From a virus (Duplodnaviria > Heunggongvirae > Uroviricota > Caudoviricetes), in IMG/VR virus record IMGVR_UViG_2671180298_000003, positions 1-18,913 of that record: DNA of 18,913 nucleotides, one strand, 5' to 3'. The first letter of the stretch is position 1. Every line of letters begins with the position of its first letter. A model generated the notes under the pieces. The model was not told where the DNA came from, searched no databases, and worked only from the letters and a program-made list of their open reading frames with translations. Position numbers and translations under genes: made by a program. Shown here one piece after another: positions 3,713-18,913 of this stretch.

Positions 3713-4206
3713 TACTCCTCCTGCTGTAATTCCTCCTCATCATCCGCACCTGCTTCGGTCACCCGCAGGGCTATCTGATCGCGCAGATCATCAATAATGG
3801 ACTGAACACGGCTCACAGCGGCAGGCTGCAGGCCGCAGTCACGTTCCAGAATATCCGGTAATGTCTCCAGCACCTGCACGACCGCTTTTGCCCAGATGGC
3901 AAACTCCCGTCTGACATCACTGGCCGGAATGAGTTGTGCCGTTTCCTGTTCGAACTTAAGACGCTCACGTTCAGACTGATACCAGGCTTTGCGTTCATGT
4001 GGATCCATTTCGCCCTCAGCAACCGGCGGTGGTAACCCCATAAATTCAGTCAGAATATCGGTCAACCGGTATAGCTTGAGTTTGTCATGTCCACCAGCGG
4101 GACGAATGTTTTTCAGTCTTGCCACGACAGTCTGGCGGTGCAGACCAGATATCCGCATGCAGCTCGTCGTGATGCTTTCTGCACAAAGGCAACACAAAGA
4201 GGTCAT
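3712..4206 (-). CDS. Terminase small subunit (Nu1-like); start unresolved (GTG 4227 / ATG 4206 / ATG 4158)
   Basis: Immediately upstream of and coupled to the large subunit; HTH-like GLHRQTVVARL near the N-terminus, acidic C-terminal tail; the 5' end overlaps the upstream DUF968 gene in another frame. Confidence 0.6.
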   Translation of the reverse strand: MTSLCCLCAESITTSCMRISGLHRQTVVARLKNIRPAGGHDKLKLYRLTDILTEFMGLPPPVAEGEMDPHERKAWYQSERERLKFEQETAQLIPASDVRREFAIWAKAVVQVLETLPDILERDCGLQPAAVSRVQSIIDDLRDQIALRVTEAGADDEEELQQEE

Positions 4207-5056
4207 GCGCTTTAGTACCCATTCCACCCTGACCGTGACCTATCAGGTGGTGGGGATCATCAGCGGGCTTTCCACAACATGCACACGGCTGTGTCTTAAC
4301 CCAACGCGTGTACTTTTCATTAACCCAGCGGCGACGTTTTGGGCGTAACATAAAAGACTCCGGCGACTCCGGATCCACTTTCAGCGCCAGCACCTTTTTT
4401 GCCTTATCCTGGATGATGCTGGTGGCAGGAACCGAAGGCACAAGGTCACTTTCCCGGGTGACAGACGGCACAACAGGCTTTGGTAATCTCAGTGCCTTAC
4501 GGGCTGCACTTTCCGGTAAGGCATCCGCCAGGTCATTACGAATCAGCCACCAGCACAGTTCCGGCATTGTCACAACGTGACTATCATCAAAACCGAGATC
4601 CCGACGCACAACAGACAACACCCAGCGGGCACAGTTATCCGTTGCCATTGATTCCAGCCGTTCCGTGAACTGATCGCGCAGCTGGTTATCGCAGTGCCAG
4701 CACAGACGGATTGCGCCCGGCGCGTGTCGCATTGTTGTCATGTTCTCGCTGTGCCAGTCGGAATGAGGCCACTGGCAGCCTTTTTCACGAAGTAACCAGC
4801 TTTCAAGACATTCCACGCCACCAGCACGACGGATCACTGCCTCATTGCGGAACACGGCCCGAACGGCAGGATCATCCGCCAGCGGTTGTGATGCCGCCGG
4901 TACGGCACCACTGGCGAAAGATGAATAACGTTCCGGCTCAGGCTCCAGCAGGACACGCCCCTGCATAAACAGGGGCATCAGCTCTGAACCTGGTCTGAAC
5001 AATACGATCCCCATACGCGGGGCAATTTCAGGGGTCAGTAGTGCTCTCACGGTCAC
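4085..5056 (-). CDS. DUF968-like phage protein with C-terminal Cys/His (HNH-like) metal-binding motif
   Basis: 323-aa ORF; C-terminal PCACCGKP...HHLIGHGQGGMGTKAHD...PLCRKHHDELH motif; GTG start 1 nt after the KilA-N stop; family assignment from memory. Confidence 0.5.
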   Translation of the reverse strand: MTVRALLTPEIAPRMGIVLFRPGSELMPLFMQGRVLLEPEPERYSSFASGAVPAASQPLADDPAVRAVFRNEAVIRRAGGVECLESWLLREKGCQWPHSDWHSENMTTMRHAPGAIRLCWHCDNQLRDQFTERLESMATDNCARWVLSVVRRDLGFDDSHVVTMPELCWWLIRNDLADALPESAARKALRLPKPVVPSVTRESDLVPSVPATSIIQDKAKKVLALKVDPESPESFMLRPKRRRWVNEKYTRWVKTQPCACCGKPADDPHHLIGHGQGGMGTKAHDLFVLPLCRKHHDELHADIWSAPPDCRGKTEKHSSRWWT

Positions 5057-5057
5057 C

Positions 5058-5867
5058 TCAATGAACGGTATCGAGCAGCTTTAACAGCTCAGGGAATCGG
5101 GATTCGAAGAAATGCGGCTGCGTCTCGCGCGGATTGGCGGGACTGGTGATGTTCTTGCCGAACATGCAGCCTTTCGCTGTCAGCGACCAGAATTTTTTGA
5201 TGTTGTTAATCGCGGTACGGCTGTATCGTTCGCGCTGCTCGACGATCCCCAGCTTCACCATCTGGTGATATGCCTGATTAGCTGTCAGGCGGATACCATA
5301 CTGCTTCAGCAGTGCACTCAGTGACAGCGTGGGGCGGCTTGAGCCATCAGGCGCGTCAGCAGGAGCATCAATGGCATAGCGCGGTGCCAGATTCGGTAAG
5401 CCAACAGCCTCCTGGAGTTTCTGACAGGCACCAAGCACTGAAGAGTTAGACAGGTTTAATTCCCGGCGCATAAAGTCCAGCAGAATCACACCAGCCTGCA
5501 TCTTGTCAGCAGCCTGTCCGGATAATTTTTCCGGTGCGCTGGTTACCATGTCGAAAGTACGGATCACCTTCAGATGGAATGACGGGCTGATCCACATTGC
5601 ATAGGCATACACCAGTTCCTTGCAGACATACGTTCCCCGTTCATTTCCCCCATGAATCACACTCACCGGGTCAACACCCAAATTCTGGGTGTTGGTCAAT
5701 TCATGAACAAGCTCAACAGTTTGTTGGCTGGAAAGAAACTTTCCTGGCTCCTTGGTTCTGGCATTTGCACCAGATGCTACTGCTGCGCGATGCAGATCGT
5801 TCAGGCTGTAACGCCCATAAGCATCACGACGAACTTCAATACCATCAATGACCATCAGATTATTCAT
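5058..5867 (-). CDS. KilA-N domain-containing phage protein (antirepressor-like)
   Basis: 269-aa ORF; N-terminal KilA-N pattern (IDGIEVRRDAYGRYSLNDLHRAA ... GTYVCKELVYAYAMWISPSFHLKV); GAGGAG SD upstream of ATG. Confidence 0.7.
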   Translation of the reverse strand: MNNLMVIDGIEVRRDAYGRYSLNDLHRAAVASGANARTKEPGKFLSSQQTVELVHELTNTQNLGVDPVSVIHGGNERGTYVCKELVYAYAMWISPSFHLKVIRTFDMVTSAPEKLSGQAADKMQAGVILLDFMRRELNLSNSSVLGACQKLQEAVGLPNLAPRYAIDAPADAPDGSSRPTLSLSALLKQYGIRLTANQAYHQMVKLGIVEQRERYSRTAINNIKKFWSLTAKGCMFGKNITSPANPRETQPHFFESRFPELLKLLDTVH

Positions 5868-5886
5868 ACTTCGTTTCTCCTCTTAA

Positions 5887-6276
5887 TCAGGCGGCTGCAC
5901 CCGCCGGTTTCTCATACTTACTGATAGTGATCTCGACCTTCCCTTTCGGGATAACCGGTCCCCACTCCACCAGCATTCTTTTCACCTGTCTGTCGTCTTC
6001 CCACACACCCGCGTGGGTCAGGGCGTCAAACAGCGCCTTGTTATAGTTGTCCAGATCGCGGATCCGGTTATCCGGAGGAAACAACACGATCTCCACTGAA
6101 GCAGGTGCCGACGTTGGTTTCGGCAGACGACGTAACTGCTCAACTATTGCTGCGCACGCCGCGCTCTGAAATTTTCGCCCCGCCTCGCTTATCAGGCTCT
6201 TACCAGCAAATGCCCCTTTGTTGGGGTGTCGCCAGTACGTGTTCACGCTGGGCGGAAAAGGCAGTATTAGCTTCAT
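5887..6276 (-). CDS. rusA: Holliday junction resolvase RusA
   Basis: 129-aa ORF; RusA-like LPFPPSVNTYWR N-terminus and DLDNYNKALFDALTHAGVWEDD core; ATG overlaps the upstream stop (ATGA); GAGGGAG SD. Confidence 0.85.
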   Translation of the reverse strand: MKLILPFPPSVNTYWRHPNKGAFAGKSLISEAGRKFQSAACAAIVEQLRRLPKPTSAPASVEIVLFPPDNRIRDLDNYNKALFDALTHAGVWEDDRQVKRMLVEWGPVIPKGKVEITISKYEKPAGAAA

Positions 6277-6599
6277 ACTTTCAGCTCCCTCTCATGTAAC
6301 CAGTGGGCTGCACGCAGCCTGGCGTTTTCCTCACCGGCAAGCAGTGCGCGGATGATACCGACCGCTTCGCTGTCGTCGTCCTTCACCGCGGTATGAAGCG
6401 TGATCCCCCGGGCCACGCCACGCTTTATCGTGATGACGCCTTTTTTCTCCAGTGCGCGAAGATGCTCCACCGCTGCATTCACTGAACGGTATCCCAGCAT
6501 GGTTGCCACCTCCTGATTGGTTGGCGGGAAGCCACGTTCTTTCTGGTAAGAAATCAGCATATCCAGCACCTGCTGCTGGCATTGAGTTAACGTCGTCAT
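6273..6599 (-). CDS. LexA-family DNA-binding protein: N-terminal LexA winged-HTH domain only, no S24 peptidase domain
   Basis: 108-aa ORF; residues 1-70 align closely by eye with the E. coli LexA N-terminal domain (LTQCQQQVLDMLISYQKERGFPPT...GYRSVNAAVEHLRALEKKGVI...ARGI); ends 40 residues later with no Ser/Lys protease motifs; ATGA-coupled to Dam. Confidence 0.75.
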   Translation of the reverse strand: MTTLTQCQQQVLDMLISYQKERGFPPTNQEVATMLGYRSVNAAVEHLRALEKKGVITIKRGVARGITLHTAVKDDDSEAVGIIRALLAGEENARLRAAHWLHERELKV

Positions 6600-7249
6600 G
6601 CCGCCATCTCCCTGACCAGTTTTTCCGCCTGCTGGCGAACCTGCGCCAGAAAGGCCTCACCACATGCCTCAAGTTCATCGCGCCCGATGTAGCTGATTGC
6701 CGGTCCCTTCCAGGTCTTGTCGAAAACAGCAATAGCACCAGCGAAGAAAGCGCCTGTCGGCACCTGCTTCTCATCCTTCGGGATAAACCAGGCAGGCAGT
6801 TCAAAACCAATACGCCCGCGAATAAAAGCAATATGGTCTGCGTCTTCCGGCCACCACACTTCGCTGGTGGCAGCTTTGATCAGGAAAACATAGCGCCCGC
6901 CTTTATCACGCATGGAACTGGCATGCTTCATGATGTAACGCATGCCAGTGATGTATTGCCCCTCATGCTGACTGGCGCGGCTGTATGGGGGATTACCAAA
7001 GGCAGCCCCTTTAAGCTCCGCAAGACGTTCTGACCAGTCATGTGCCAGCGCGTTGTCTTCCGCCGTGTAATACGCGGCACATTTGGCGTTATCACCGTCA
7101 GTGAACAGATCCAGAACAAACGGACCAAACAGGGTGTTAATTCCCCAGAAAATGTTATCCGGCGTGCGCCACTGATCGCCCACTTCCTTCAGTTCATGGG
7201 CTGGTTTGTTCCGCAGTTCCACCAGCGCCTGGCAATATTTATTACTCAT
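6596..7249 (-). CDS. Phage Dam-family DNA N6-adenine methyltransferase
   Basis: NPPY catalytic motif (FGNPPYS) and N-terminal WRTP motif; ATG at 7249 with GGGGG SD, overlapping the PerC-like stop (TAATG); ORF-track start 7282 is probably an upstream extension. Confidence 0.8.
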   Translation of the reverse strand: MSNKYCQALVELRNKPAHELKEVGDQWRTPDNIFWGINTLFGPFVLDLFTDGDNAKCAAYYTAEDNALAHDWSERLAELKGAAFGNPPYSRASQHEGQYITGMRYIMKHASSMRDKGGRYVFLIKAATSEVWWPEDADHIAFIRGRIGFELPAWFIPKDEKQVPTGAFFAGAIAVFDKTWKGPAISYIGRDELEACGEAFLAQVRQQAEKLVREMAA

Positions 7250-7737
7250 TAAGCCCCCACGTAATTCCCTGACAGATACCACTCTTCACCTGATGCAGCC
7301 CGCTTATTGCTTTTCCGTAAACACCGTTCACGACGCGCCAGAAAATTATTTCGTTCTGGCTGGGAGTGGCTTTCACGGAATGCCGCCATCCACACCGTTG
7401 CAGCACGACGGTATAAGCCCCTGGACTCCAGTTCTTCCGCCTGGCGGGTCAGGCACAAAATCACCCGCGGGTCGTTAGTGCCGACATAGAAATTGCGCAC
7501 AGGTCTGGTTTCACGAACTGGTTGTGGTTCCGGCTCCTGCGCTCTCTCAGTCAGGCGTGGGAAATGTCTGCGTGTATCTCCTTCACAACGGTGAGCCACA
7601 CGCCCACTCTGACGTAACTTGCTTGCTGACTGCAGAACGCGCTGCCGTGAGTAACCTGCAAAAGCATCCGCAATGTCTCCGGAAGTACACCCCGGATGGG
7701 CTTCAATGAATTTCTGAACTTCATTCAAAAGACTCAT
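7249..7737 (-). CDS. PerC-family transcriptional activator-like protein (YfdN-like)
   Basis: C-terminal LESRGLYRRAATVWMAAF resembles the conserved PerC/Pch motif; ATG at 7737 (third codon of ORF) with GGGGG SD; 2 nt after the upstream TGA. Confidence 0.5.
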   Translation of the reverse strand: MSLLNEVQKFIEAHPGCTSGDIADAFAGYSRQRVLQSASKLRQSGRVAHRCEGDTRRHFPRLTERAQEPEPQPVRETRPVRNFYVGTNDPRVILCLTRQAEELESRGLYRRAATVWMAAFRESHSQPERNNFLARRERCLRKSNKRAASGEEWYLSGNYVGA

Positions 7738-7739
7738 GA

Positions 7740-8558
7740 TCACCCCCTGAATCCTGCCGGGATCTGGCTGTAGTCCACGTTGTCGTAACTGGCTTTGAAG
7801 TACGGGTCCTCACGTCTGGCTGCAGATACCGCAGGAACTTCCCAGGATTCTTCGAAATGACGATCCGGACCAAAGAACGTGACAGCCTGTTTCACAAATT
7901 GTGTGCCGCTGTTACCCATCGCAGATACCCAGCCTGCATAGCGTTTCACACCTTCCAGCATGGTTTCGGGGTTTACCCCCTCATTCAAACGGGCTTTCCA
8001 GGCTTTGAAGGCTGCTGATTTTGAATTGCCACCAGCACGTTTGGGGTATGCCAGCCATGCCTGCTCAAACTCCGGAGAGTATTCCGGTCGGTTTGAACGA
8101 ACTCGCACGGACTCATCAGCAGATGCACCAACAGCTATTGGTTCATTGACTGGTTCTTTGACTGGTTCAAAAGAGTGACTGGTTCTGGGTGAATCTCCTG
8201 CACTACCCCCTGGTGCAACTCCTGCACTACCTGGTGAATTTGCTGCACCAGATAGTGAATTATTTGCACTACCCCCTAGTGAATCTCCTGCACCATCCAG
8301 ATGAAGGAGATAGATATTACTTGAGTTACCTTTTTCACCTTTCCGGGTGACTTTTTTTACCAGCCCGGACTCACAAAGGGCCGCAATATGATTCATCACA
8401 GAACGTTTGCTAATCTCGCACTGGTCAGCAATATGCTGGTAGCTGGGCCAGCACTCCCCCTGATCGCTGGCATTATCAGCCAGCTTGATCAGAACCAGTT
8501 TTCGCAATGGATTACCCACTCGAATTTTCATCGCTTTAACCATCAGCTCCATACTCAT
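7740..8558 (-). CDS. Replication initiator / replisome organizer (lambda O-like, YfdO-like) with internal iteron-bearing linker
   Basis: 272 aa; N-terminal winged-HTH typical of phage replication proteins; Gly/Ser/Ala-rich linker encoded by direct nucleotide repeats; lies downstream of cro/CII-like genes. Confidence 0.6.
   Translation of the reverse strand: MSMELMVKAMKIRVGNPLRKLVLIKLADNASDQGECWPSYQHIADQCEISKRSVMNHIAALCESGLVKKVTRKGEKGNSSNIYLLHLDGAGDSLGGSANNSLSGAANSPGSAGVAPGGSAGDSPRTSHSFEPVKEPVNEPIAVGASADESVRVRSNRPEYSPEFEQAWLAYPKRAGGNSKSAAFKAWKARLNEGVNPETMLEGVKRYAGWVSAMGNSGTQFVKQAVTFFGPDRHFEESWEVPAVSAARREDPYFKASYDNVDYSQIPAGFRG
8189..8300. repeat. Putative replication origin: about five ~22-24-bp direct repeats (iterons, core cTGCACtacc...GTGAAt) inside the O-like gene, preceded by three gactggttc repeats (8147-8185)
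   Basis: Repeats read directly from sequence; arrangement parallels lambda ori inside gene O. Confidence 0.55.
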
Positions 8559-8779
8559 GCAGCACCTCCGAGATGCTTCATGTTTTTTCCGGAGCGAAAG
8601 GTTATAAGCGGCATACTGACGCGGTAACTACGGCCCAGCGGTTCACAAATCACCTTCTGACATTCACGGTCAACCAGGCTAACACGTAGAACATGCCCTG
8701 CAGGTGTGGTGTACCACTGACCCGGACGAGGACAACGGAAAGTCTGATTGGTAAACCGTTTGAAAATATTCCGGATCAT
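8555..8779 (-). CDS. Hypothetical small phage protein (74 aa)
   Basis: ORF bracketed by ATGA/ATGA overlaps with both neighbours, consistent with translational coupling; no recognisable domain. Confidence 0.4.
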   Translation of the reverse strand: MIRNIFKRFTNQTFRCPRPGQWYTTPAGHVLRVSLVDRECQKVICEPLGRSYRVSMPLITFRSGKNMKHLGGAA

Positions 8780-9924
8780 TTGCGCCCCCTTACCTCTGAA
8801 GGGTTCAGCGACAAATTTATGAGGCAGGCCAGTGCCGAAGCATCATTAATATAGTCATACAAGCTAACAGCCAGCGGAGATTCGGCTTTTGCCAACATAG
8901 GATAAAGCTGCTGCAGCCAGACCTGATGAATTGATGAAATGTAGGAATAGAGAACGCTGGCGTTATGTGCAACGTCGCTCGGTACAGGGGGTTTTGAAAG
9001 CTGTTTCTCCATCTGGTTAAAGGCATTGATATATGCCTCTTTGAACTGGGCAGCACGTTTACCCGTGAAACCCATAGCAAGAAACGCAAAGCCGTCGCGG
9101 GTTATTTGATAGCAAGGTAGTTTGCGGCCTGATGCGTCGATGTACTCACTGAGCTGAAAATTCAGCTCAGTAAATTCGGCAGAGCATTCAAGAGACGCAA
9201 TTTTTTGAATGACATTTTTGTGTTGTTTGCCGAAATAACTAGCAACAGCCAGAGAAGAAGTAACAACTTTGTCTGCAATAATGCAAAGTTCAGGTTGTAC
9301 TAAGGCAGGGATCGTAGCCATGATGGCAGCCTCCGTATGCAATGGATAACTTCCACCACCGGAAACGCCAATTTCGCTGGTGGTGAACTGAGCAGGGTTG
9401 GCGTAACCGGCGCATACGGAAACCGGCGCACCTTTCGGTGCCCCCACCCAGCCCACCATAATTTGGGTATAGCTGAGTTGTAGCAACAAAAAAGACGCTA
9501 ACGCGCCAATTGTCGCCGTATGCAATTCCAGGACGCCAATCCCGGCACCCGCTTTATAAGGTGCCTGAACAGTGTAACGTCCCGGAATGGCAGAATCAAT
9601 GTGCTGGTGGTCCTTCACACTCAACAAAATCACGCCTGAATTTCCACAAAGGACTAAAGCACTCATGCGGGTAGTCTTTGCGAAGATAGATAACGCGCTG
9701 TGTTTCTGGCTCCCAACGAATAACATGGACATAAAGCCCTCTTCCGTCACGAAACCAGCGGTTAAGTTCCTGCACAACTCGCCCCCCACAGTCAGGTAAA
9801 GTTCTCTGTGGTTACTTACAGCCAGGTGATCTGGTAATCTGCATTCATGCCGTAACAACAGGTGTTCAGCGACACTGACCACCAGCTGTTGCGACAAACG
9901 GTTATTTGCCGTTAAACTGTTCAT
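8776..9924 (-). CDS. Rha-family phage regulatory protein with ~200-aa N-terminal extension; nested in-frame start at 9321 would give a 181-aa Rha-only product (8776..9321)
   Basis: C-terminal 181 aa begins MATIPALV and carries the Rha signature GFAFLAMGFTGKRAAQFKEAYINAFNQME; GGAGG SD 8 nt upstream of internal ATG 9321; upstream ATG 9924 overlaps the stop of the preceding gene (ATGA) and the frame stays open for 201 codons. Confidence 0.65.
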   Translation of the reverse strand: MNSLTANNRLSQQLVVSVAEHLLLRHECRLPDHLAVSNHRELYLTVGGELCRNLTAGFVTEEGFMSMLFVGSQKHSALSIFAKTTRMSALVLCGNSGVILLSVKDHQHIDSAIPGRYTVQAPYKAGAGIGVLELHTATIGALASFLLLQLSYTQIMVGWVGAPKGAPVSVCAGYANPAQFTTSEIGVSGGGSYPLHTEAAIMATIPALVQPELCIIADKVVTSSLAVASYFGKQHKNVIQKIASLECSAEFTELNFQLSEYIDASGRKLPCYQITRDGFAFLAMGFTGKRAAQFKEAYINAFNQMEKQLSKPPVPSDVAHNASVLYSYISSIHQVWLQQLYPMLAKAESPLAVSLYDYINDASALACLINLSLNPSEVRGRK

Positions 9925-10472
9925 GCGTTAGTTTCTCCACAGACACAAAACGCCACGACGCCCGGAGCTGCACACTCGCGGGCGTCACTCTTTTCTGGAG
10001 CGCAGAAGATTTTGTAGACCAGTGCTGCATGCTCCTGGAGCTTCGAAATTGACAGATACAACTCATCATTAATTGCTGTCTGCTCGTGTGGCTCCACGAC
10101 CCCATCTTCGATTGCCGAACGAATCTGCTTTGAGTAATTCCCGATCTGTTCGATGACTTCCAGCAGGCGCTGGTTTATATCGGCGTTCTCTACTTCCTCA
10201 ATTTCAGGAAGCGATACGAACACCCCACCGGCAGACTGTGCGACAGCATCCGCAATGTAGTGAGTGCCAGCCGCGCGCTGTAAAACCATTGCCCATCCCA
10301 GCGGGAAAATCTGATCGCCATCTGCACGAAGGCGGTTGAATAAAGCGTTCTCTGTTACATCCAGCCAGTCAGCAGCTTCAGCGTAACCCCCAGGCAATGC
10401 CGCGATAGTTTTTCTGACAGCTTTCACGTACCACTCAGGTTGTTTTTCCACTTTCCAGTGATGCTTACCCAC
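9921..10472 (-). CDS. Putative CII-like (CP76-type) phage regulatory protein
   Basis: 183-aa ORF directly after cro; GTG start with GGAGG SD 6 nt upstream; HTH-like segment GGYAEAADWLDVTENALFNRL; family assignment tentative. Confidence 0.4.
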   Translation of the reverse strand: MGKHHWKVEKQPEWYVKAVRKTIAALPGGYAEAADWLDVTENALFNRLRADGDQIFPLGWAMVLQRAAGTHYIADAVAQSAGGVFVSLPEIEEVENADINQRLLEVIEQIGNYSKQIRSAIEDGVVEPHEQTAINDELYLSISKLQEHAALVYKIFCAPEKSDARECAAPGVVAFCVCGETNA

Positions 10473-10725
10473 GGCTTACCTCCTGTTCCTGTGGTTTAAA
10501 CCCATTCTGGTTTTGGCTAGATTGAAAACGTGCCGGATAAAGAATCTGCATTTCGCTGATTTCACCCTTAAAAAAATTGGCCAGACGTTCTGCAAGATCG
10601 ATAGATGGAATTTGTTCCAGTCTTTCAATACGACTCAGCGTCGCTGGATTGACCTGAACGCCCGCAGCAACATGCTGCAAAGTAAATCCGTGCGCCTTAC
10701 GCACATTTCGTAATGGTGATTGCAT
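10465..10725 (-). CDS. cro: Cro-like XRE-family HTH repressor
   Basis: 86 aa; HTH FTLQHVAAGVQVNPATLSRIERLEQ; divergent from cI across an operator-rich 97-bp spacer; GGAGG SD 5 nt upstream. Confidence 0.75.
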   Translation of the reverse strand: MQSPLRNVRKAHGFTLQHVAAGVQVNPATLSRIERLEQIPSIDLAERLANFFKGEISEMQILYPARFQSSQNQNGFKPQEQEVSRG

Positions 10726-10822
10726 ATAACCTCCACATATTGCGTGATGAGCATATTATTTCACGCAAATATTTTGCGCAAGTTGATTTGCTTAACGCGC
10801 AATAAAGAAATGTAATAAACGC
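10726..10822. promoter_or_regulatory. Immunity switch region (OR-like): divergent cro and cI promoters with operator-like sites
   Basis: TTGCTTAACGCGCAA (10788-10802, TTGC-N7-GCAA), palindromic TTGCGCAA (10774-10781), inverted repeat TTGCGTGA...TCACGCAA (10740-10768); putative -35 TTGCTT / -10 TGTAAT ending at the cI ATG. Confidence 0.6.
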
Positions 10823-11515
10823 ATGAACATAGGAAACCGAGTCAGACAACTTCGCCAGGCGAAGAACATGAAAATCGCCGATCTCGCTGAAGCAATAGGA
10901 GTGGATGCGGCGAATATCTCGCGCCTGGAAACAGGTAAGCAGAAACAATTCACTGAACAAGCCCTGAGTAATATTGCCAGGAGCTTAGGTGTTGATATTG
11001 CTGATCTCTTTACCTCAGACGTCAAAAGTAATACTGTATGTAAAAACAGTATTAGTGAGGATGTTGCGCAGGTGAAGGATGTATTCCGTATTGAAATGCT
11101 GGATGTCAGTGCCAGTGCGGGAAATGGCCTTATCCAGGGCGGTGATGTCATTGATGTGATTCATGCCATTGAATACAGAACTGATAATGCTGTATCGATG
11201 TTTGGCGGACGACCAGCCAATCACATTAAAGTTATCAACGTTCGTGGGGACAGTATGTGTCCAACCATTGAGCCAGGAGATCTCATCTTCGTTGATATCA
11301 GTATCAATCAGTTTGATGGGGATGGTATATATGTATTTGGTTTTGATGATAAAATTTACGTCAAACGACTGCAAATGATACCTGATAAACTGCTGGTAAT
11401 TTCTGATAATCAGATTTACCGCGAATGGGGAATTACCAGCGAAAACGAACATCGGTTTATGGTCTTTGGAAAGGTCTTAATCAGTCAGTCACAAACCCTT
11501 AAGCGACACAATTAA
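10823..11515 (+). CDS. cI: CI-type prophage repressor (N-terminal XRE HTH, C-terminal S24 LexA-like peptidase)
   Basis: 230 aa; HTH MKIADLAEAIGVDAANISRLETGK; Ala-Gly cleavage site (SASAGNG); catalytic Ser in GDSM and Lys in YVKRL. Confidence 0.9.
   Translation: MNIGNRVRQLRQAKNMKIADLAEAIGVDAANISRLETGKQKQFTEQALSNIARSLGVDIADLFTSDVKSNTVCKNSISEDVAQVKDVFRIEMLDVSASAGNGLIQGGDVIDVIHAIEYRTDNAVSMFGGRPANHIKVINVRGDSMCPTIEPGDLIFVDISINQFDGDGIYVFGFDDKIYVKRLQMIPDKLLVISDNQIYREWGITSENEHRFMVFGKVLISQSQTLKRHN
11032..11051. promoter_or_regulatory. LexA/SOS-box-like palindrome TACTGTATGTAAAAACAGTA inside the cI coding sequence
   Basis: Perfect CTGT-N8-ACAG with TA flanks and AT-rich spacer; only such site found in a manual scan of the window. 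Confidence 0.4.
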
Positions 11516-11536
11516 CCCCCTACCTCAACATCAATT

Positions 11537-11558
11537 AGCCACCAGAAGGTGGCTTTTC
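11537..11558 (+). terminator. Rho-independent terminator downstream of cI
   Basis: Hairpin AGCCACC-agaa-GGTGGCT followed by TTTT, 22 nt after the cI stop. Confidence 0.6.
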
Positions 11559-11571
11559 ATTACCCACCAAA

Positions 11572-11610
11572 TTGCATATCTCGCAATAAAAACACTTGCA
11601 TAATGCGCAA
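11572..11610. promoter_or_regulatory. OL-like operator pair / probable early-left promoter region
   Basis: Two TTGC-N7-GCAA sites (TTGCATATCTCGCAA 11572-11586; TTGCATAATGCGCAA 11596-11610) matching the motif in the cI/cro spacer. Confidence 0.5.
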
Positions 11611-12055
11611 CTTCATTTTATCTTTCTTTCCAGACCTACAAACAAGGTACTAACAAAATTTGGTTGTAACACGGCGTATGGCACATGCGTCGTTAGCGGT
11701 CTGGGGACGTTAAAGGGGACAATCCACTCCTTGCTCGGGCAAACAAACCAGGTAGCCGGAATGTGCAAGTCAATGATGATGCTGATAAGACGCCTAACCA
11801 GCGTGGCGATTCGGTTTGACGCCTGGGAAGAGACCAGGGTGCAACGATGAGGGCATTTATGGAGCCGCGACAAAGTGTGGTGCCGTAACTGGCTAAGTGC
11901 TCTCAGCGTTGTGGTGAATGCGCAGGCTGATGCGCGAAAGACATTGCAGCTATTGCGGAAAAGAGCTGTTCGGCGGGGCAATTAAACGCCCGTGAGAGTC
12001 TGAAATAACCGCAAGCCGGAGATCAGCACCGGTCACCACAACAGCCACTGCTTTG

Positions 12056-12101
12056 GCGGTACCAGTTTGTACACTTGCTTCCGGCTGGTACCGCTCTTTT
12101 T
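12056..12101 (+). terminator. Terminator-like hairpin in early-left leader, overlapping a boxA-like CGCTCTTTTTAC
   Basis: Perfect 10-bp stem GCGGTACCAG/CTGGTACCGC, 19-nt loop, then TCTTTTT. Confidence 0.4.
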
Positions 12102-12238
12102 ACAAAACAGAGAAGAGCATCACCGGACGACGGGCTCATAACCCAATCCATCCGGGCGGCTGCCACCGCAGGTGTTCTTCTCTGTTTTGTGGAGAAACCA
12201 ACCGACCTTGCAGGGTCGATATGATGAGGAGCAGCAAA

Positions 12239-12601
12239 ATGGCTAGCGAACGCAGTACTGATGTGCAGGCATTTATCGGGGAGCTGGACGGCGGCGTATT
12301 TGAAACCAAAATCGGCGCAGTTCTCAGTGAAGTCGCTTCAGGTGTGATGAACACGAAAACCAAAGGTAAGGTCTCACTCAACCTGGAAATCGAACCATTT
12401 GATGAGAACCGTGTGAAAATCAAACACAAACTCTCATATGTTCGCCCGACTAACCGCGGGAAAATTTCCGAAGAAGACACCACCGAAACGCCGATGTATG
12501 TCAATCGCGGTGGTCGCCTGACTATTCTGCAGGAAGACCAGGGACAATTACTGACTCTTGCCGGTGAACCTGACGGAAAACTACGCGCAGCAGGTCATTA
12601 A
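12239..12601 (+). CDS. Hypothetical early phage protein (YfdP-like, 120 aa)
   Basis: AGGAG SD 7 nt upstream of ATG 12239; ORF-track upstream extension (TTG at 12053) crosses leader hairpins and lacks an RBS. Confidence 0.6.
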   Translation: MASERSTDVQAFIGELDGGVFETKIGAVLSEVASGVMNTKTKGKVSLNLEIEPFDENRVKIKHKLSYVRPTNRGKISEEDTTETPMYVNRGGRLTILQEDQGQLLTLAGEPDGKLRAAGH

Positions 12602-12666
12602 TATCGTTCTTAATTAACTGATTATTTATCTCATCACTGAATATCTTTATATAGTGAGGACTTATT

Positions 12667-13491
12667 ATGTCTCAGAACTTAGACGCAACCGCAATTAATC
12701 AAATCCATGCCCTTATTTCTGCTCAGGGTGTTAATGAAATTATCAGTAAGATTGGTGCCGATGCTGTGGCATTGCCTGAGAATTTCCGCATTCATGATCT
12801 GGAAAAATTTAATTTAAATCGCTTCCGTTTCCGTGGTGCGCTTTCCACTGCCAACATCGATGACTTTACCCGTTATTCTAAAGATCTTGCAGATGAAGGC
12901 ACCCGCTGCTTTATCGATGCTGATAATATGCGTGCCGTCAGTGTACTTAACCTGGGTACTATTGATGAACCAGGTCACGCAGATAACACCGCCACTCTCA
13001 AACTGAAAAAGACAGCACCGTTCTCTGCCCTGTTGTCTGTTAACGGCGAGCGTAACTCCCAGAAGTCACTGGCAGAATGGATTGAAGACTGGGCCGACTA
13101 CCTTGTGGGCTTTGATGCTAATGGTGACGCTATTCAGGCAACAAAAGCGGCTGCGGCAGTCCGTAAAATCACGATTGAAGCAAACCAGACCGCTGATTTT
13201 GAAGATAATGACTTCAGCGGCAAACGCTCCCTGATGGAATCTGTCGAAGCGAAGACCAAAGACATTATGCCAGTGGCATTTGAATTTAAATGCGTTCCGT
13301 TTGAAGGTCTGAAAGAACGTCCGTTTAAATTACGCCTCAGCATTATCACTGGCGATCGTCCTGTACTGGTTCTGCGCATTATTCAGCTGGAAGCGGTGCA
13401 GGAAGATATGGCTAACGAATTTCGTGATCTGCTTGTTGAGAAATTCAAAGACAGCAAAGTAGAAACCTTTATTGGTACTTTCACCGCCTGA
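12667..13491 (+). CDS. yfdQ: YfdQ-like protein (DUF2303 family), function unknown
   Basis: 274 aa, same length and operon position as CPS-53 YfdQ; GAGGA SD upstream; family call from memory. Confidence 0.6.
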
Positions 13492-13503
13492 TTTCATTAC
13501 TGC

Positions 13504-13527
13504 AAATGCCCCTGCGGGGGCATTTAT
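13504..13527 (+). terminator. Intra-operon rho-independent terminator/attenuator
   Basis: AAATGCCCC-tgcg-GGGGCATTT hairpin followed by AT-rich tail, 13 nt after the yfdQ-like stop. Confidence 0.55.
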
Positions 13528-13618
13528 GGAAACGTAATTAACTCAATAATCACCGGATGGTGAGGGCTTCCTTTTACCCAAACTCAGCGCGGTGCAGCGC
13601 ATATACGTGGAGAACAAA

Positions 13619-14155
13619 ATGTCATTTATTAAAACTTTTTCCGGGAAGCATTTTTATTATGACAAGATAAATAAAGACGACATCGTGATTAACGATATCG
13701 CGGTTTCCCTTTCAAATATCTGCCGCTTTGCCGGTCATCTTTCTCACTTCTACAGTGTCGCCCAACATGCGGTGCTTTGCAGCCAGCTGGTGCCGCAGGA
13801 ATTTGCTTTTGAAGCGTTAATGCATGATGCAACAGAAGCGTATTGCCAGGATATTCCCGCTCCACTGAAACGCCTTCTTCCTGACTATAAACGGATGGAA
13901 GAAAAAATTGACGCCGTAATCCGTGAGAAATACGGGTTACCCCCAGTTATGAGTACGCCCGTGAAATATGCCGATCTTATCATGCTGGCAACCGAACGCC
14001 GCGATCTCGGGCTTGATGATGGCTCTTTCTGGCCTGTACTGGAAGGCATCCCGGCAACAGAGATGTTCAACGTGATTCCACTGGCACCTAGCCATGCCTA
14101 CGGGATGTTTATGGAACGTTTTAACGAGTTATCGGAGTTACGCAAATGCGCATGA
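13619..14155 (+). CDS. yfdR: HD-domain phosphohydrolase, YfdR-like 5'-deoxynucleotidase
   Basis: 178 aa from ATG 13619 (GGAG SD); HD signature H...HD (SVAQHAV ... LMHDATEA); ORF-track GTG start at 13592 is probably an extension. Confidence 0.7.
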   Translation: MSFIKTFSGKHFYYDKINKDDIVINDIAVSLSNICRFAGHLSHFYSVAQHAVLCSQLVPQEFAFEALMHDATEAYCQDIPAPLKRLLPDYKRMEEKIDAVIREKYGLPPVMSTPVKYADLIMLATERRDLGLDDGSFWPVLEGIPATEMFNVIPLAPSHAYGMFMERFNELSELRKCA

Positions 14156-14508
14156 ATGTTTTCGAAATGGAAGGGTTTCTTCGCGGGAAATGTGTACCGC
14201 GAGATCTGAAAGTGAACGAAACAAATGCTGAGTACCTGGTACGTAAATTCGACGCGCTTGAAGCTAAATGTGCGGCACTGGAAAACAAAATAATACCAGT
14301 GTCAGCTGAACTGCCACCAGCAAATGAAAGTGTTCTGTTATTTGATGCTAACGGAGAAGGCTGGCTGATTGGCTGGCGTTCTCTCTGGTACACTTGGGGA
14401 CAAAAAGAAACCGGAGAATGGCAGTGGACATTTCAGGTCGGGGACCTTGAAAACTTCAATATCACTCACTGGGCAGTAATGCCAAAAGCGCCGGAGGCTG
14501 GAGCATAA
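14146..14508 (+). CDS. DUF551-like phage protein (YfdS-like)
   Basis: 120 aa; C-terminal ITHWAVMPKAPE motif; GGAG SD; overlaps upstream stop. Confidence 0.55.
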   Translation: MRMNVFEMEGFLRGKCVPRDLKVNETNAEYLVRKFDALEAKCAALENKIIPVSAELPPANESVLLFDANGEGWLIGWRSLWYTWGQKETGEWQWTFQVGDLENFNITHWAVMPKAPEAGA

Positions 14509-15128
14509 TGACCACATTTACCAATAAAGAACTGATTAAAGAAATCAAAGAACGAATCAGCAGCCTAGAGGTTCGAGACGATATTGAGCGCCGTGCTTAT
14601 GAAATTGCTCTGGCATCGCTAGAAGAGGAGCCGGTGGCATGGCTGCATTCAGAAAATGGCTTAGGTATTCCGGCAATAACGAGGAGTAAAAACATTGCTG
14701 ACAGTTGGTTATCAAAGGGCTGGTATGTTCAGCCGCTATATATAGCCAAGCCAGTGCCGGTGGTGCCAGATGCTCGTCCGTCTTTAAATAATGGCATAGT
14801 CGGCTTTGATGAAGGCTGGAACGCCTGCCGCGCCGCCATGCTTAATGGTGCCGAACCTGTAAGCCAGACTTACAAGTTGAACGAGCTGTCGGGCAACTCT
14901 CCGGTAACTCCGGATGGTTGGATAAGCTGTAGTGAGCGAATGCCGAACGATAAACAGTATGTTTGGTGTTGGGGTAAGTCTTACGGCTGGACTGAGTGCG
15001 ATACCTTCGAAGGGTATTACGATTGTTCGAGAAACAAATGGTGGGCAGTTACTGACAATGGGGAAGAACCGGCATCGAAAGTAACCCACTGGATGCCGCT
15101 ACCGGAGCCACCGCAGGAGGTGAAGTAA
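14508..15128 (+). CDS. DUF551-domain phage protein (YfdT-like, longer form)
   Basis: 206 aa; C-terminal W...ERMP...VTHWMPLPEPP motif; TAATG overlap with upstream gene. Confidence 0.55.
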   Translation: MTTFTNKELIKEIKERISSLEVRDDIERRAYEIALASLEEEPVAWLHSENGLGIPAITRSKNIADSWLSKGWYVQPLYIAKPVPVVPDARPSLNNGIVGFDEGWNACRAAMLNGAEPVSQTYKLNELSGNSPVTPDGWISCSERMPNDKQYVWCWGKSYGWTECDTFEGYYDCSRNKWWAVTDNGEEPASKVTHWMPLPEPPQEVK

Positions 15129-15322
15129 TGAACAACTTAATGACAACTAAACAAGTCGCCGACTTCTGTGGCGTTTCAGTATCGACCGTTCTTCGCTGGA
15201 ACAGCGTAAACAGGAGAACTGGCCAGAAATACAGGCCAGACTTTCCAGATCCTGATATTAAATCATGCCCAAATAAATGGGCATCACGCAAGATTTACAA
15301 ATTTGCGGGAGTTATTGAGTAA
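15128..15322 (+). CDS. Excisionase-like HTH DNA-binding protein (AlpA/TorI family)
   Basis: 64 aa; HTH MTTKQVADFCGVSVSTVLRW; strong AGGAGGTGA SD; last gene of early-left operon, facing the integrase. Confidence 0.7.
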   Translation: MNNLMTTKQVADFCGVSVSTVLRWNSVNRRTGQKYRPDFPDPDIKSCPNKWASRKIYKFAGVIE

Positions 15323-15357
15323 CGAGCATTAGCTCAGATGAGAGTTGGTACACCTAT

Positions 15358-15398
15358 GGCACAGAGCTAAACCTGATCTGTTATATTCGCTCTGTGCC
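15358..15398. repeat. Perfect 10-bp inverted repeat GGCACAGAGC / GCTCTGTGCC with 21-nt spacer between convergent genes
   Basis: Read directly from sequence; nested TAGCTC/GAGCTA repeat at 15330-15369; no U-tract on either strand. Confidence 0.4.
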
Positions 15399-15429
15399 GG
15401 AAGTATGCCATATTTATTACATACAGTTG

Positions 15430-17562
15430 TCAATCTTTAAGACTAATTGTGATTGCATCTGGAAATCCAATTTGGCTATAGCACATAGTTTCGGTTATGA
15501 ATAATTTTCTATCGATAAAATCAAGTACATCTTTTTTCGTGAGCCCCGTTAACATCGTCAATTTGTTAATTACATAATCATACCAATCATGGTGAAGCAT
15601 GTTTATATACATGTTAATATCAACTGCATCTTTCTTCCATGAGTTATTCGGTATCAAATCTTCAGATAAAAATCCTCTTATTAAATCGCTTGCATAGGAC
15701 ATCCTAAGAAAAACAGAAAGAAAAAGCCTTACATTAACATGTGTAAAATTTGTAGATAGCGTCGAAGGAAACTCGTAAAACCGGTAGATCAACCGACTTA
15801 CAAACACAGCAGAGTCTATCGCATTTACTGGCAGTAATGTTCCGATGACACTTAATGCACCACTTATAACGAAGCCATTAGCAACAGAGGCATGAGAACC
15901 GCTTAGGGCAGATGTTAAACATGCACTCAGAATTACGATAGGAGGAATTCTTGCTATTTTTCTCAAACTCCAAGTGTCCACTTTATCCTCACCTATTATT
16001 AACCATCCATGACTCCCATTGCCATCATGGTTTCCATGACAATCCATAACAAGAATATGACCTTGATATTGATTTAGAGCATCAATAAACTCAGCTTTCG
16101 ATCTAACATCAATAATCTCGCAATCAAGATCTGGCATCTGTTTTTTAAATATCTCAATTGCGTTCTCTAATATGAACTTTAAGTGATCATCAGGCTCAAA
16201 AGAACGTATAACTAAAACCTTTCTCAACTCAGATGCTTTTACTAAAACGCGCGGAAAAGCAGAGGCGCTCTGTAGAAGAACGTTACCAGGCGTAGCATTT
16301 ATTCTTGATATCTCATGACTGAACATTATAGGTATGTTATTAAACCTAATCCAATCCAATGGTACATCACAAACAAAGGACAAATCGCTATAGTTTTTAC
16401 TTATATATGTTCTCAACTTGCAACCAAGGGCTCTTCGAATAACAGTATTGAATGCTTTAGATTTAGTGATGAATGCTTCACTATTTATCCCAGAAGAAGT
16501 TGCAAGATCTTCAAGATTTTTCAAATAATTGGAGTAATGATTTATTGCATTTGGCAATCTTATTGCTGGGATTTTTTTATTTATGCTAAATAAAGTAATC
16601 GCAGCTGTTGTTAATCGCATTTCAGCGCGTCTTAGTGAGGTGAGGTAACGGAAAGCAGGACTTTTAAAAAGTTCTTTTCTATCTGAATTTATATCAAGTC
16701 TAATTCCAGAATAGCCAGGATTCCTCAACACTCCATCAATAAGGAATTTTTTCTCAATTGTGGATAAATTTTCCGTTATTAACTCATAAAAGTCATTATT
16801 TTTATCATATAAAAAAGAGTGCATACCCGGAGCAAAAAGTAAGACTTCCGTTGGAAGTGGTATATCTAATTCCTTTAAACATTCGGTGTATGCATCAACG
16901 CTATGAAGTATTATTTCTATAAACTCTCTTTTGCTACTACCATCTTTAATTCTTTTTGGTGGAGATAGCATATAGCCAAGTGATTCAATTAACAACTCAT
17001 TGGGTAGTGTTGAATTGTTAAGCGTCGATCTCCAAGGTGATTTATTAAATAAAGCCCCTCTTCGCTTCAACTTCGTTGATATTTTCTTTTCACTGTGATT
17101 TTTTCTTATTTTATCCTCAATGAATTTCAACCGAGAGAAGAGCACCTTATCAAATGAGTATATACTATTAATCTTATTAAGTGGTAGATCAGCGCGTTTA
17201 GAATTGCAACAAATTATAGGTGGTATAGCAAAATGTTTTTTTAAAGCACAAACATACGAAAAATCTTCTTTAGCACAAAAAATTAAGCAAAATGGCGTTT
17301 GATAAATATTTGGTATTTTTTCAAGATTTTCTTTAGATATTAAAAAAATAGGATTTAGCCCGCTTAGAGTAGGCTGAAAGTTATCATTTTCATTGACAAA
17401 AATCTCACTAATTTCTTTTGGTGTTTTGGCCAATAAAAAAAGAATGTTGGATATCTCTGGGTTGAGGAGGCCAGTATCGAAACCTTGGATTATGGTTTGT
17501 TCCCCAGTAGTAGGCATGATTACAACTTTAAGTATCGCCCCGTGTTCCTGTAACAGTTCCAT
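15430..17562 (-). CDS. CHAT (caspase-like) protease domain protein with ~470-aa uncharacterised N-terminal region; candidate phage-defence/abortive-infection cargo
   Basis: ATG at 17562 with AGGA SD 6 nt upstream (ORF-track TTG at 17619 adds 19 hydrophobic residues); caspase/CHAT His-Cys dyad context ILVMDCHGNHDGNGSHGWLIIGED ... IPPIVILSACLTSALSG ... GALSVIGTLLPVN; strongly AT-rich relative to flanks. Confidence 0.7.
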   Translation of the reverse strand: MELLQEHGAILKVVIMPTTGEQTIIQGFDTGLLNPEISNILFLLAKTPKEISEIFVNENDNFQPTLSGLNPIFLISKENLEKIPNIYQTPFCLIFCAKEDFSYVCALKKHFAIPPIICCNSKRADLPLNKINSIYSFDKVLFSRLKFIEDKIRKNHSEKKISTKLKRRGALFNKSPWRSTLNNSTLPNELLIESLGYMLSPPKRIKDGSSKREFIEIILHSVDAYTECLKELDIPLPTEVLLFAPGMHSFLYDKNNDFYELITENLSTIEKKFLIDGVLRNPGYSGIRLDINSDRKELFKSPAFRYLTSLRRAEMRLTTAAITLFSINKKIPAIRLPNAINHYSNYLKNLEDLATSSGINSEAFITKSKAFNTVIRRALGCKLRTYISKNYSDLSFVCDVPLDWIRFNNIPIMFSHEISRINATPGNVLLQSASAFPRVLVKASELRKVLVIRSFEPDDHLKFILENAIEIFKKQMPDLDCEIIDVRSKAEFIDALNQYQGHILVMDCHGNHDGNGSHGWLIIGEDKVDTWSLRKIARIPPIVILSACLTSALSGSHASVANGFVISGALSVIGTLLPVNAIDSAVFVSRLIYRFYEFPSTLSTNFTHVNVRLFLSVFLRMSYASDLIRGFLSEDLIPNNSWKKDAVDINMYINMLHHDWYDYVINKLTMLTGLTKKDVLDFIDRKLFITETMCYSQIGFPDAITISLKD

Positions 17563-17645
17563 CAAAAATCCTAATAAACAAATAAAAATGTTATAATCAA
17601 AAACTGCAAGGATTAGCAAGCAATTCTTACAGTTTTAAGAAGGGG

Positions 17646-17671
17646 ATTATACCGCAATATGCATAATTGCG
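17646..17671 (-). promoter_or_regulatory. Putative promoter of the CHAT gene: perfect -10 TATAAT (minus strand) abutting a 19-bp palindrome CGCAATATGCATAATTGCG
   Basis: Read from sequence; palindrome occupies the -35/spacer position; no good -35 hexamer. Confidence 0.4.
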
Positions 17672-17695
17672 TTCTGCCTATGCAAAATGTCAGTT

Positions 17696-18913
17696 CTAGT
17701 CTGAACAAGTACAAGTAACTATCGATTCAACCCTCTCCCACCACGCCTGGTAAGCTTTACGCTGTTCTTCTAAATAATCGCTCTTGTCATAAACCTGCCA
17801 TACCCCTGGCAGTTTATGACCGAGCATTATTTCTGCAATATGAGGCGCAGTAAGATCAGAAAAGTTTGTTCGTGCTGTTCGTCTCAAATCATGAAGAGAC
17901 CAATGAGGGAATTGATACCCCAAACGCCGCCATGCGTACTGCATTAAATTGTAAGGCAGCGACTGCAATGATGTCCGTCCAACGGGCTCCCTGCTTCCTT
18001 CCTTAGTAAAAAGCATATCGGAACCATTGTTCATAGAGATAACGTACTTTATAAGCTCTTCAACCGGTTCAATAATGGGGCGCTTTAGCGGTTCGCCTGT
18101 TATATCCCCTGTCTTATGTCGTTCTGGCGGTACAGTCCATACCTTATTTATGAAATCAAAATCATCCACCCTAGCAGTAATTAGCTCCGAACTACGGCAA
18201 CCAAAATGCAGTAATAGTTTAATGAAGGCCCGGTATTTGGGAACCATTCTAGAGCCATCGATCGCAGCATAAAGAATTTTAATTTCATCGTGTGTCAGAA
18301 ACCGTTTCTTCTGACCTTTACGGATATCCATATCTTTACCCGTGATATCCGACAGCGGGCGAGTTTCAATAAGCTTTCTCTTATACGCCCAGACATGGGC
18401 CTGCTTTGCGTTAATTAGCAATCGGTCTGCTATTGCTGGAGTCTTAGTGCTAAGAGGCTCCAAGACTTCTAACCAATCATGCAATGTAGCTGCATCGTGA
18501 GGGATATTCCCGATTTTAGAGAACAGGTGCAGCTCAAACGAGCGGAGTATCTGTTCAGAACCCTTTTTATTTTTTACACAATATGCTTCATACCAGGCAC
18601 GGATCACAGACTCTACCGTCATGGCTTCAGTAGCTTTTCGTTTTTCAGCCTGCTTGACCAATCGTGGATTACGGTTTGACTCGAGTTCACCACGGAGACG
18701 GATAACTTCTTCTCTGGCCTCTTTTAATCCAGTTGCCGGGTAAGTTCCGATATCAAGACGCTCACCTTTCCCTGCCCATTGATAACGATATTGGAACACT
18801 ACGCGACCTTTCGGTGATACTCTGACAGACAGACCATCACGATCGGATTTAACCAAAACCTTATCACGTTCCTTTCCAACGACTGAACGCAACCACGCAT
18901 CAGACAGCGCCAT
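17696..18913 (-). CDS. int: Tyrosine-type site-specific integrase, P4-like family
   Basis: 405 aa; N-terminal arm-binding-type domain (GLSVRVSPKGRVVFQYRYQWAGKGERLDIGTYP); C-terminal catalytic residues (HDLRRT ... Y); start codon is the last three bases of the window. Confidence 0.85.
   Translation of the reverse strand: MALSDAWLRSVVGKERDKVLVKSDRDGLSVRVSPKGRVVFQYRYQWAGKGERLDIGTYPATGLKEAREEVIRLRGELESNRNPRLVKQAEKRKATEAMTVESVIRAWYEAYCVKNKKGSEQILRSFELHLFSKIGNIPHDAATLHDWLEVLEPLSTKTPAIADRLLINAKQAHVWAYKRKLIETRPLSDITGKDMDIRKGQKKRFLTHDEIKILYAAIDGSRMVPKYRAFIKLLLHFGCRSSELITARVDDFDFINKVWTVPPERHKTGDITGEPLKRPIIEPVEELIKYVISMNNGSDMLFTKEGSREPVGRTSLQSLPYNLMQYAWRRLGYQFPHWSLHDLRRTARTNFSDLTAPHIAEIMLGHKLPGVWQVYDKSDYLEEQRKAYQAWWERVESIVTCTCSD

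Follow-up and report, generated by a model that had tools for sequence, protein, structure and literature searches.

We report that the cI repressor gene (10823-11515, + strand) of a tailed phage in the class Caudoviricetes carries, inside its coding sequence, a near-consensus LexA (SOS) box, TACTGTATGTAAAAACAGTA, at positions 11032-11051 of the 18,913-nucleotide stretch analyzed here (IMG/VR virus record IMGVR_UViG_2671180298_000003, positions 1 to 18,913; hereafter, the window). Purifying selection maintains this box as DNA, with chance excluded by the sequence comparisons below, and we predict with high confidence that it is a functional LexA operator. As to what such an operator would control, the best-supported reading, and one toward which we lean modestly, is that it governs an internal sense promoter for a nested form of CI without the helix-turn-helix (HTH) domain; for the entire combination of operator, internal promoter, and nested HTH-less isoform, we consider the chances roughly even. 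A further step, in which the short isoform would antagonize full-length CI in a dominant-negative manner, is put forward more tentatively and by analogy.

The box, read on the + strand, starts with the last base of codon 70 of cI, reaches codon 77, and is located in the interdomain linker, upstream of Ala99-Gly100. It combines an exact CTGT-N8-ACAG core with an AT-rich spacer and TA flanks, and differs from the 20-mer consensus TACTGTATATATATACAGTA by three mismatches, a match that was found in 0 of 200 shuffles. We scored it with a LexA matrix built from E. coli sites, for which absolute values are approximate, obtaining a heterology-like score of 1.8—better than the 4.3 of recA; polB scores 9.1, and the runner-up among the window's 20-mers 11.7. 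The site is one base off the operator shared by umuDC and sbmC, and the version in phage SfII is identical to the umuDC operator. An earlier note, made from the letters of this DNA alone, had described a near-consensus SOS box in the cI linker at these positions, and the scoring upholds that description and shows the site to be stronger than the note's core-based estimate suggested. That estimate was of about 0.3 core matches by chance in 19 kb; we computed an expectation of 0.20, and two bare CTGT-N8-ACAG cores are present. The second, CTGTGGTTACTTACAG (9806-9821), had been overlooked; it lies within an open reading frame (ORF) with a Rha/Ash domain (8776-9924, - strand), has a GC-rich spacer and no TA flanks, scores 14.7, and is probably a chance match. 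The note's manual scan had found no other such site, and TACTGTATGTAAAAACAGTA is the only strong LexA-type site of the window.

To place the box in an evolutionary context, we assembled homologs of cI using annotated phages, a single genome for each species, and viral contigs, yielding 201 full-length genes, of which 126 were unique and 49 non-redundant at 93% DNA identity. A LexA-like CTG-N10-CAG box occurred at identical codons in 46 of the 49, including homologs with as little as 47% protein identity, and 43 of the 49 attained a LexA-matrix score of 6 or lower. Together with the shuffles, this same-codon placement rejects a chance match, which the earlier note had allowed for. Box-bearing genes were associated with a broad set of hosts—Escherichia, Shigella, Salmonella, Citrobacter, Kluyvera, Klebsiella, Buttiauxella, Trabulsiella, Pantoea, Mixta, Rosenbergiella, Proteus, and Serratia—and the cI of Cronobacter phage ENT47670 (50% identity) also has the box. 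The three non-redundant genes without it comprised two from Dryocola, one of which retains a degenerate, GC-rich core, and one from Phaseolibacter (39%). Among the more distant repressors that we checked (HK022 cI, ST104 C2, Turner, PHL101, PSTCR7lys, Stx2d_112808, and Omnitron), none had a box, and these proteins differ in their N-terminal half. The possibility that the box is general to all HK022-like repressors was rejected, given that relatives at about 42% identity or below are without it; its presence in 46 of 49 homologs and absence from distant repressors instead indicate that the box marks one clade of cI genes.

Several lines of evidence show that it is the DNA, and not the encoded peptide, that has been held constant. 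Conservation within the protein is lowest in the linker, with mean column identities of 0.43 (residues 65-70) and 0.34 (residues 77-86) as against ~0.8 in both domains, and the 18-mer of the box, at 1.694 bits, nearly equals the gene's best-conserved DNA stretch (1.698 bits). Codon choice within the box is strongly restricted: Thr71 is encoded by ACT in 45 of 45 homologs, against a 31.7% share of ACT among the other Thr codons of these genes; Ser76 by AGT in 44 of 46 (15% elsewhere); and Val72 by GTA in 41 of 45 (19% elsewhere). Codons 70, 73, 74, and 75 differ among homologs in the residue they encode (for example, N/D/Y/H/S/T) but not in the box bases, such that codon 75 may be AAC, GAC, TAC, CAC, TCC, or ACC—always NAC or NCC, and always ending in C. 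Third-position information reaches 2.0 bits at codons 71, 73, 75, and 76, relative to a gene mean of 0.65, and the information profile of the box correlates at 0.77 with that of E. coli operators. The earlier note had raised the test of whether the site drifts while the protein is conserved, and the outcome was the opposite, with box nucleotides more conserved than the surrounding protein.

Two other explanations for this conservation were considered and rejected. An RNA hairpin is not the selected feature, as the arms vary in a LexA-like fashion without compensation—box position 15 changes from A to C in 6 of 46 genes with no compensating change at position 6—and the would-be 'loop' is conserved. 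Nor is a conserved T-V-Y-K-N-S peptide the cause, given that residues vary while box bases and synonymous positions are fixed. The suggestion in the earlier note that an SOS-linked layer has been added to a self-cleaving repressor is borne out insofar as the operator looks genuine and selected and the residues for cleavage (Ala99-Gly100, 11117-11122; Ser144, 11252-11254; and its dyad partner Lys181; all on the + strand) are kept in 48 of the 49 non-redundant homologs.

We then searched for transcription signals, scoring both strands of the 47 genes with CTG-N10-CAG at the box position using a sigma-70 matrix based on approximate frequencies. In the window, a predicted -35 element, TTTACC (11009-11014, + strand; codons Phe63-Thr64), is separated by a 17-nt spacer from a predicted -10 element, TACTGT (11032-11037, + strand), that is formed by the left arm of the box. 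The same arrangement, TTTAC(N)-17 nt-TACTGT, recurs at a fixed offset in 34 of the 47 homologs with a score above the 99.9th percentile of background. Lineages from Pantoea, Serratia, and Rosenbergiella have lost the TTTAC -35 element; these have a perfect TATAAT in the center of the box and a CTGNNA-type -35 element, again with 17-nt spacing, and in two genes of the Pantoea/Serratia type (L111 and L191), the promoter at the box is the only promoter-like site found in scans of the whole gene on both strands. Overlap between the box and a predicted + strand promoter is seen in most homologs. Spacing between the Phe63 codon and the box is constant in 45 of 47 genes, though the six intervening residues vary, and the linker downstream of the box contains insertions and deletions. 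Candidates on the minus strand were instead inconsistent in hexamers and offsets among homologs, with a mean score of 6.05 versus 7.6 for the + strand.

Downstream of the box, most homologs encode a purine-rich match to the Shine-Dalgarno (SD) sequence located 7-10 nt ahead of an in-frame GTG or ATG. In the window, this SD-like element is GAGGA (11057-11061, + strand), for which a duplex with the 3' end of 16S rRNA is computed at -6.4 kcal/mol, and the start is GTG84 (11072-11074), 10 nt farther downstream. The predicted nested ORF, extending in frame from GTG84 to the cI stop (11072-11515, + strand), would encode a product of 147 amino acids that lacks the HTH domain and has the Ala-Gly cleavage region and a complete S24 domain (Pfam Peptidase_S24, E=1.9e-19); its closest solved relatives by sequence are UmuD/UmuD', at a marginal E of about 3e-4. 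In a first set of homologs, an SD (≤ -5.4 kcal/mol) with an in-frame GTG or ATG at codons 84-89 was present in 16 of 17, where the background rate of SD-preceded starts is 0.43% per codon, or 2.6% per six-codon window. In the larger set, 40 of 46 box-bearing homologs had an SD-preceded in-frame start, compared with 4.5 expected and a maximum of 15 in 100,000 simulations in which the same proteins were re-encoded with random synonymous codons. At least 10 distinct SD/start configurations were observed, with the two elements shifting together (GAGGA...GTG84, AGGAAGGA...GTG85, GGAGA...GTG87, GAGGG...GTG88, AGGAG...ATG87, and others), and this joint movement between lineages points to selective maintenance and not to a single inherited accident. 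SD-preceded starts were also commoner with the box than without it (35/9 vs 2/6, p=0.005, not corrected for phylogeny). A C-terminal-domain-only protein starting from Met92 was rejected, as that codon is not a conserved start.

The co-occurrence at the box of a predicted sense promoter, an SD, and an in-frame start suggests that an N-terminally shortened CI has a transcription unit of its own inside the gene. The earlier note had proposed that LexA could be coupled to cI transcription; the LexA-like operator is consistent with this in part, but nothing points to control of full-length cI; PRM lies ~210 bp upstream, and the features adjacent to the box are those of the predicted internal unit.

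From the sequence, we infer LexA binding, firing of the promoter during SOS, and the synthesis and function of a short protein, in a scheme that would run as follows. Host LexA would occupy a 20-mer overlapping the -10/+1 region of a weak sense promoter within cI, such that in an undamaged lysogen the internal promoter would be silenced and PRM alone would supply full-length CI. Upon DNA damage, activated RecA would lead to cleavage of LexA and the internal promoter would fire, producing a transcript of ~470 nt with its own ribosome-binding site (the GAGGA at 11057) and in-frame GTG (11072). The 147-residue CI isoform made from it would be without the HTH domain but would keep the Ala-Gly region and the S24 dimerization/catalytic domain, and mixed oligomers of this isoform with full-length CI would bind operators less well. 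The isoform would in this way serve as a built-in, LexA-controlled antirepressor beside the RecA-stimulated self-cleavage of CI. Antagonism of this kind would be expected because the isoform shares the C-terminal oligomerization domain with full-length CI, and negative dominance by C-terminal repressor fragments is established in general terms. Other roles may apply, including a decoy substrate that delays CI cleavage or cleavage of CI in trans, between which the sequence cannot separate.

A number of observations weigh against this scheme. The + strand promoter in the window is weak, matching 7 of 12 consensus positions, and a stricter consensus promoter scan of the window does not flag it; its score of 7.3 is about equal to the 7.2 of the window's minus-strand candidate. 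Some of the apparent conservation of the promoter follows automatically from that of the Leu-Phe-Thr residues and of the box itself. Six of the 46 box-bearing genes (Klebsiella type) have no start at codons 84-89 and only GTG96, and the window's SD-GTG spacing of 10 nt is among the longer spacings usually seen. Conversely, the box-less repressors of Omnitron and PHL101 also carry an SD-preceded internal ATG. Finally, the conservation and start statistics ignore shared ancestry, and both the LexA and sigma-70 matrices derive from approximate values.

The internal starts in box-less relatives bear on the history of the short form. In Citrobacter phage Omnitron (L211, 883-1638) and Mannheimia phage PHL101 (L213, 692-1378), the ATG is located ~12-16 codons before the Ala-Gly site. 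SD-preceded starts in such relatives imply that internal initiation may predate LexA control or be partly independent of it, and an isoform consisting only of the C-terminal domain may be more widespread than the LexA box or may have preceded it.

We weighed four other accounts of the box. An internal promoter would be dispensable if LexA, bound ~210 bp into the cI transcription unit, acted as a roadblock or attenuator that partly blocks RNA polymerase arriving from PRM (or PRE), limiting full-length cI mRNA in undamaged cells until SOS lifts the block. This account, which we regard as unlikely, explains the DNA-level conservation and fixed position of the box equally well, is favored by the weakness of the window's promoter and its absence from the promoter scan, and fits the expression data for ST64B described below. 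It leaves unexplained, however, the selected SD and in-frame start, the fixed upstream spacer, and the perfect TATAAT with a 17-nt-spaced -35 element in the Pantoea/Serratia type, and a rise in cI during SOS would oppose induction, though it could serve recovery. Slightly less probable again is a LexA-repressed antisense promoter that uses the AT-rich center of the box as a minus-strand -10 element, from which SOS transcription would proceed through the 5' third of cI and PRM/OR into cro, hindering cI synthesis and bypassing CI repression of the lytic operon. That logic suits induction, palindromic AT-rich boxes hold -10-like hexamers on both strands, and in the window the minus-strand TTCACC-17-AATACT scores close to its + strand counterpart. 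On the other hand, the minus-strand candidates share no architecture among homologs and score lower on average, the would-be -35 region falls in the hypervariable linker, scans of L111 and L191 return no minus-strand promoter in cI, and the SD/start signal is again left without explanation.

The remaining two accounts appear considerably weaker. It is improbable that the box is bound mainly by the phage's own protein consisting only of a LexA DNA-binding domain (6273-6599), for example to shut off the internal unit or to block cI transcription during lytic growth. The window does encode a full LexA_DNA_bind domain that resembles the N-terminal domain of LexA (44% identity) with a mostly retained recognition helix, and SfII, Stx2 phages, and mEp460 have both gene and box. 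Against this, the gene travels with the Dam-RusA module and is also found in phages such as SfV, SfIV, and cdtI; it does not appear among the hits for ST64B, Eeyore, or Klebsiella P7641, all of which bear the box; the box fits the host consensus in about a dozen genera; and a lone DNA-binding domain is without a known dimerization domain. We consider it least probable, to the point of being nearly discounted, that the box has no present function, whether as chance, a by-product of the peptide, or the inert relic of an ancestral event that joined an HTH domain to an umuD-like gene under LexA control. A fusion origin is plausible as history, given that UmuD/UmuD' are the nearest solved relatives of the C-terminal domain and that the SfII box equals the umuDC operator. 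Chance is nonetheless ruled out by the shuffles and the same-codon conservation, and a protein-level cause by the variation of residues over fixed box bases, while an inert relic would have lost its synonymous sites across lineages at 47-70% amino-acid identity.

Published expression data offered a limited view of the predicted internal promoter. On peroxide shock, a condition under which the lytic genes of ST64B are switched on, ST64B cI mRNA rises from 250.8 to 393.6 transcripts per million (TPM), compared with a change from 126.9 to 108.2 for the cI of BTP1, where values are per gene and do not separate the 5' and 3' parts of cI. The rise fits an internal promoter weakly. The Salmonella small RNA STnc1310, which is induced by peroxide and nitric-oxide shock, was rejected as an intragenic SOS RNA of cI because it maps beyond the gene, ~330 nt past the stop codon of ST64B cI; in all probability it represents a PL leader, and the corresponding region of the window is at about 11600-11900.

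The arrangement predicted here resembles several known systems without coinciding with any of them. Like lambda, the locus has an HTH-linker-S24 repressor with the Ala-Gly site and Ser/Lys dyad, a divergent cro, a terminator, and an OL/PL layout. Induction of lambda relies on RecA-stimulated CI self-cleavage, and whereas here a box lies inside cI, lambda cI is not known to have a LexA box. The predicted short product also recalls UmuD in its short N-terminal arm, cleavage site, S24 domain, and near-umuDC operator, but it would be a repressor isoform and not a polymerase subunit, and the similarity is weak (E about 3e-4). Among the window ORFs examined, there was no umuC or Y-family polymerase gene, and thus no standalone S24 gene next to umuC. 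A formal parallel is the Tn5 pair Tnp/Inh, in which initiation at an internal start yields Inh, a short in-frame protein that is missing the DNA-binding N-terminus and blocks Tnp by forming mixed oligomers with it. Two in-frame proteins are likewise predicted from the one cI gene, although the protein family and biology differ, and in Tn5, LexA reportedly acts weakly on the promoter for the full-length protein and not on that for the short one.

Direct LexA control of promoters is known from other phages. Tum of coliphage 186 and GfoA/GfhA of the Gifsy phages are expressed from LexA-repressed phage promoters, and their products are proposed to bind and inactivate the repressor (Lemire et al. 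2011, PMC3121763). As in that type, SOS would reach the phage through LexA cleavage, but those systems pair a separate small gene with a non-cleavable repressor, whereas here an in-frame isoform is predicted within the gene for a cleavable one; the nested unit in cI would therefore work like a Tum/GfoA module without being a member of that group. Host LexA also represses phage promoters directly at CTXphi PrstA and, together with gp7, at GIL01 P1 (PMC4551915). The likeness, predicted in our case, is that host LexA acts on phage DNA in the control of lysogeny; in contrast, the boxes in CTXphi and GIL01 are intergenic and control lytic or replication genes, and the box described here is within a repressor coding sequence. 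Full-text literature searches turned up no LexA site described in the cI of ST64B, SfII, Stx phages, or e14 and no truncated form of the repressor, though key older ST64B papers were outside this search and an earlier description is possible. A full-text search for SL1344_1967 returned nothing.

Of the 5,426 complete E. coli genomes, 1,040 carry this type of cI, and it also occurs in Stx phages, the Shigella serotype-converting phage SfII, and Salmonella phage ST64B. We suggest, at well under even confidence, that a widespread family of lambdoid cI genes constitutes a LexA-controlled gene within a gene, whose HTH-less isoform, made during SOS, would poison CI and give induction a two-key control. 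With the same reserve, that family would include mEp460, SfII, ST64B, several Stx2 phages, and many prophages of Klebsiella, Pantoea, Serratia, and Proteus. In these phages, induction governs the release of toxin, the transfer of genes, and killing by antibiotics that damage DNA. If the suggestion is correct, the threshold for induction would be set by LexA in addition to RecA-stimulated CI cleavage, which would be relevant to why certain prophages are induced sooner or more easily than lambda. The repressor locus would then specify, besides the repressor, an SOS-triggered antirepressor of its own, and would clearly exemplify the maintenance of a transcription-factor site, promoter, and ribosome-binding site within coding sequence. 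The prediction is cleanly testable—synonymous changes can destroy the box, and a Val-to-Val change removes the internal start.

The surrounding immunity region (10400-11600) is 100% identical to that of phage mEp460, with Stx2 phages and SfII close and ST64B, Eeyore, and Klebsiella phages more distantly related. Gene order is lambdoid, with a CII (CP76)-family gene beyond the cro-like gene, followed by the operator region, cI, a terminator, and OL/PL-like operators. The cI product, 230 amino acids in length, was identified by Pfam and is annotated as a cI/prophage repressor in mEp460 and SfII. With an HTH domain (HTH_3/HTH_26) at residues 3-64, a variable linker at 65-86, Peptidase_S24 at 104-218, and conserved cleavage and catalytic residues, it looks like an ordinary self-cleaving repressor of the lambda/LexA type. 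The divergent cro-like HTH gene (10465-10725, - strand) was recognized by domain search and by the annotation of mEp460 and SfII, and the OR/PRM/PR intergenic operator region occupies 10726-10822. An intrinsic terminator 3' of cI (11537-11554, + strand), found by a terminator scan and annotated in SfII, would stop the internal transcript too. Operators at OR (10726-10822) and OL (11573-11612) appear as TTGC-N7-GCAA. The cI ATG at 10823 has no SD and a -10-like TGTAAT/TAATAA lies immediately upstream, which together suggest that the PRM transcript may be leaderless, as in lambda. Within this group, ST64B is reported to be SOS-inducible (PMC12626290).

The e14 element of E. coli K-12, a strain for which LexA ChIP and transcription start site data are available, was considered as a stand-in for these phages and rejected, as its repressor YmfK (CohE) belongs to a different family and has a linker without a box. 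A separate CTGT-N8-ACAG core, TTCTGTACCAGAAAACAGTT, is present in the ymfI/ymfJ overlap of e14 (L110, 2080-2099). LexA-dependent induction of e14 genes has been reported (PMC11228462), and this core may be relevant to it.

The earlier note had named host LexA or the phage's LexA-like protein as possible ligands of the box. The latter protein is real: its 108 amino acids (6273-6599, - strand) match PF01726 with E=2.9e-19, with no S24 domain, and are 44% identical to E. coli LexA residues 3-86, including most of the recognition helix (NAAVEH vs NAAEEH). Its gene, which sits between the Dam and RusA genes and was found in 61 phage records, is not linked to the box across the family, and host LexA is the simpler ligand because the box is kept in ST64B, Eeyore, and Klebsiella P7641, for which the gene is not listed. 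A possible role for the protein is that of a LexA mimic that cannot be cleaved and restores repression of SOS genes or boxes during lytic growth; in this phage, it could be a second ligand of the box.

At the far end of the window, the arm from 15430 to 18913 differs from mEp460 despite the identical immunity region. It encodes a 729-residue protein with a weak match to the CHAT domain (15430-17619, - strand), adjoining a P4-type integrase gene (17696-18913, - strand) that runs past the end of the window; the former may be a cargo or defense gene at the prophage end.

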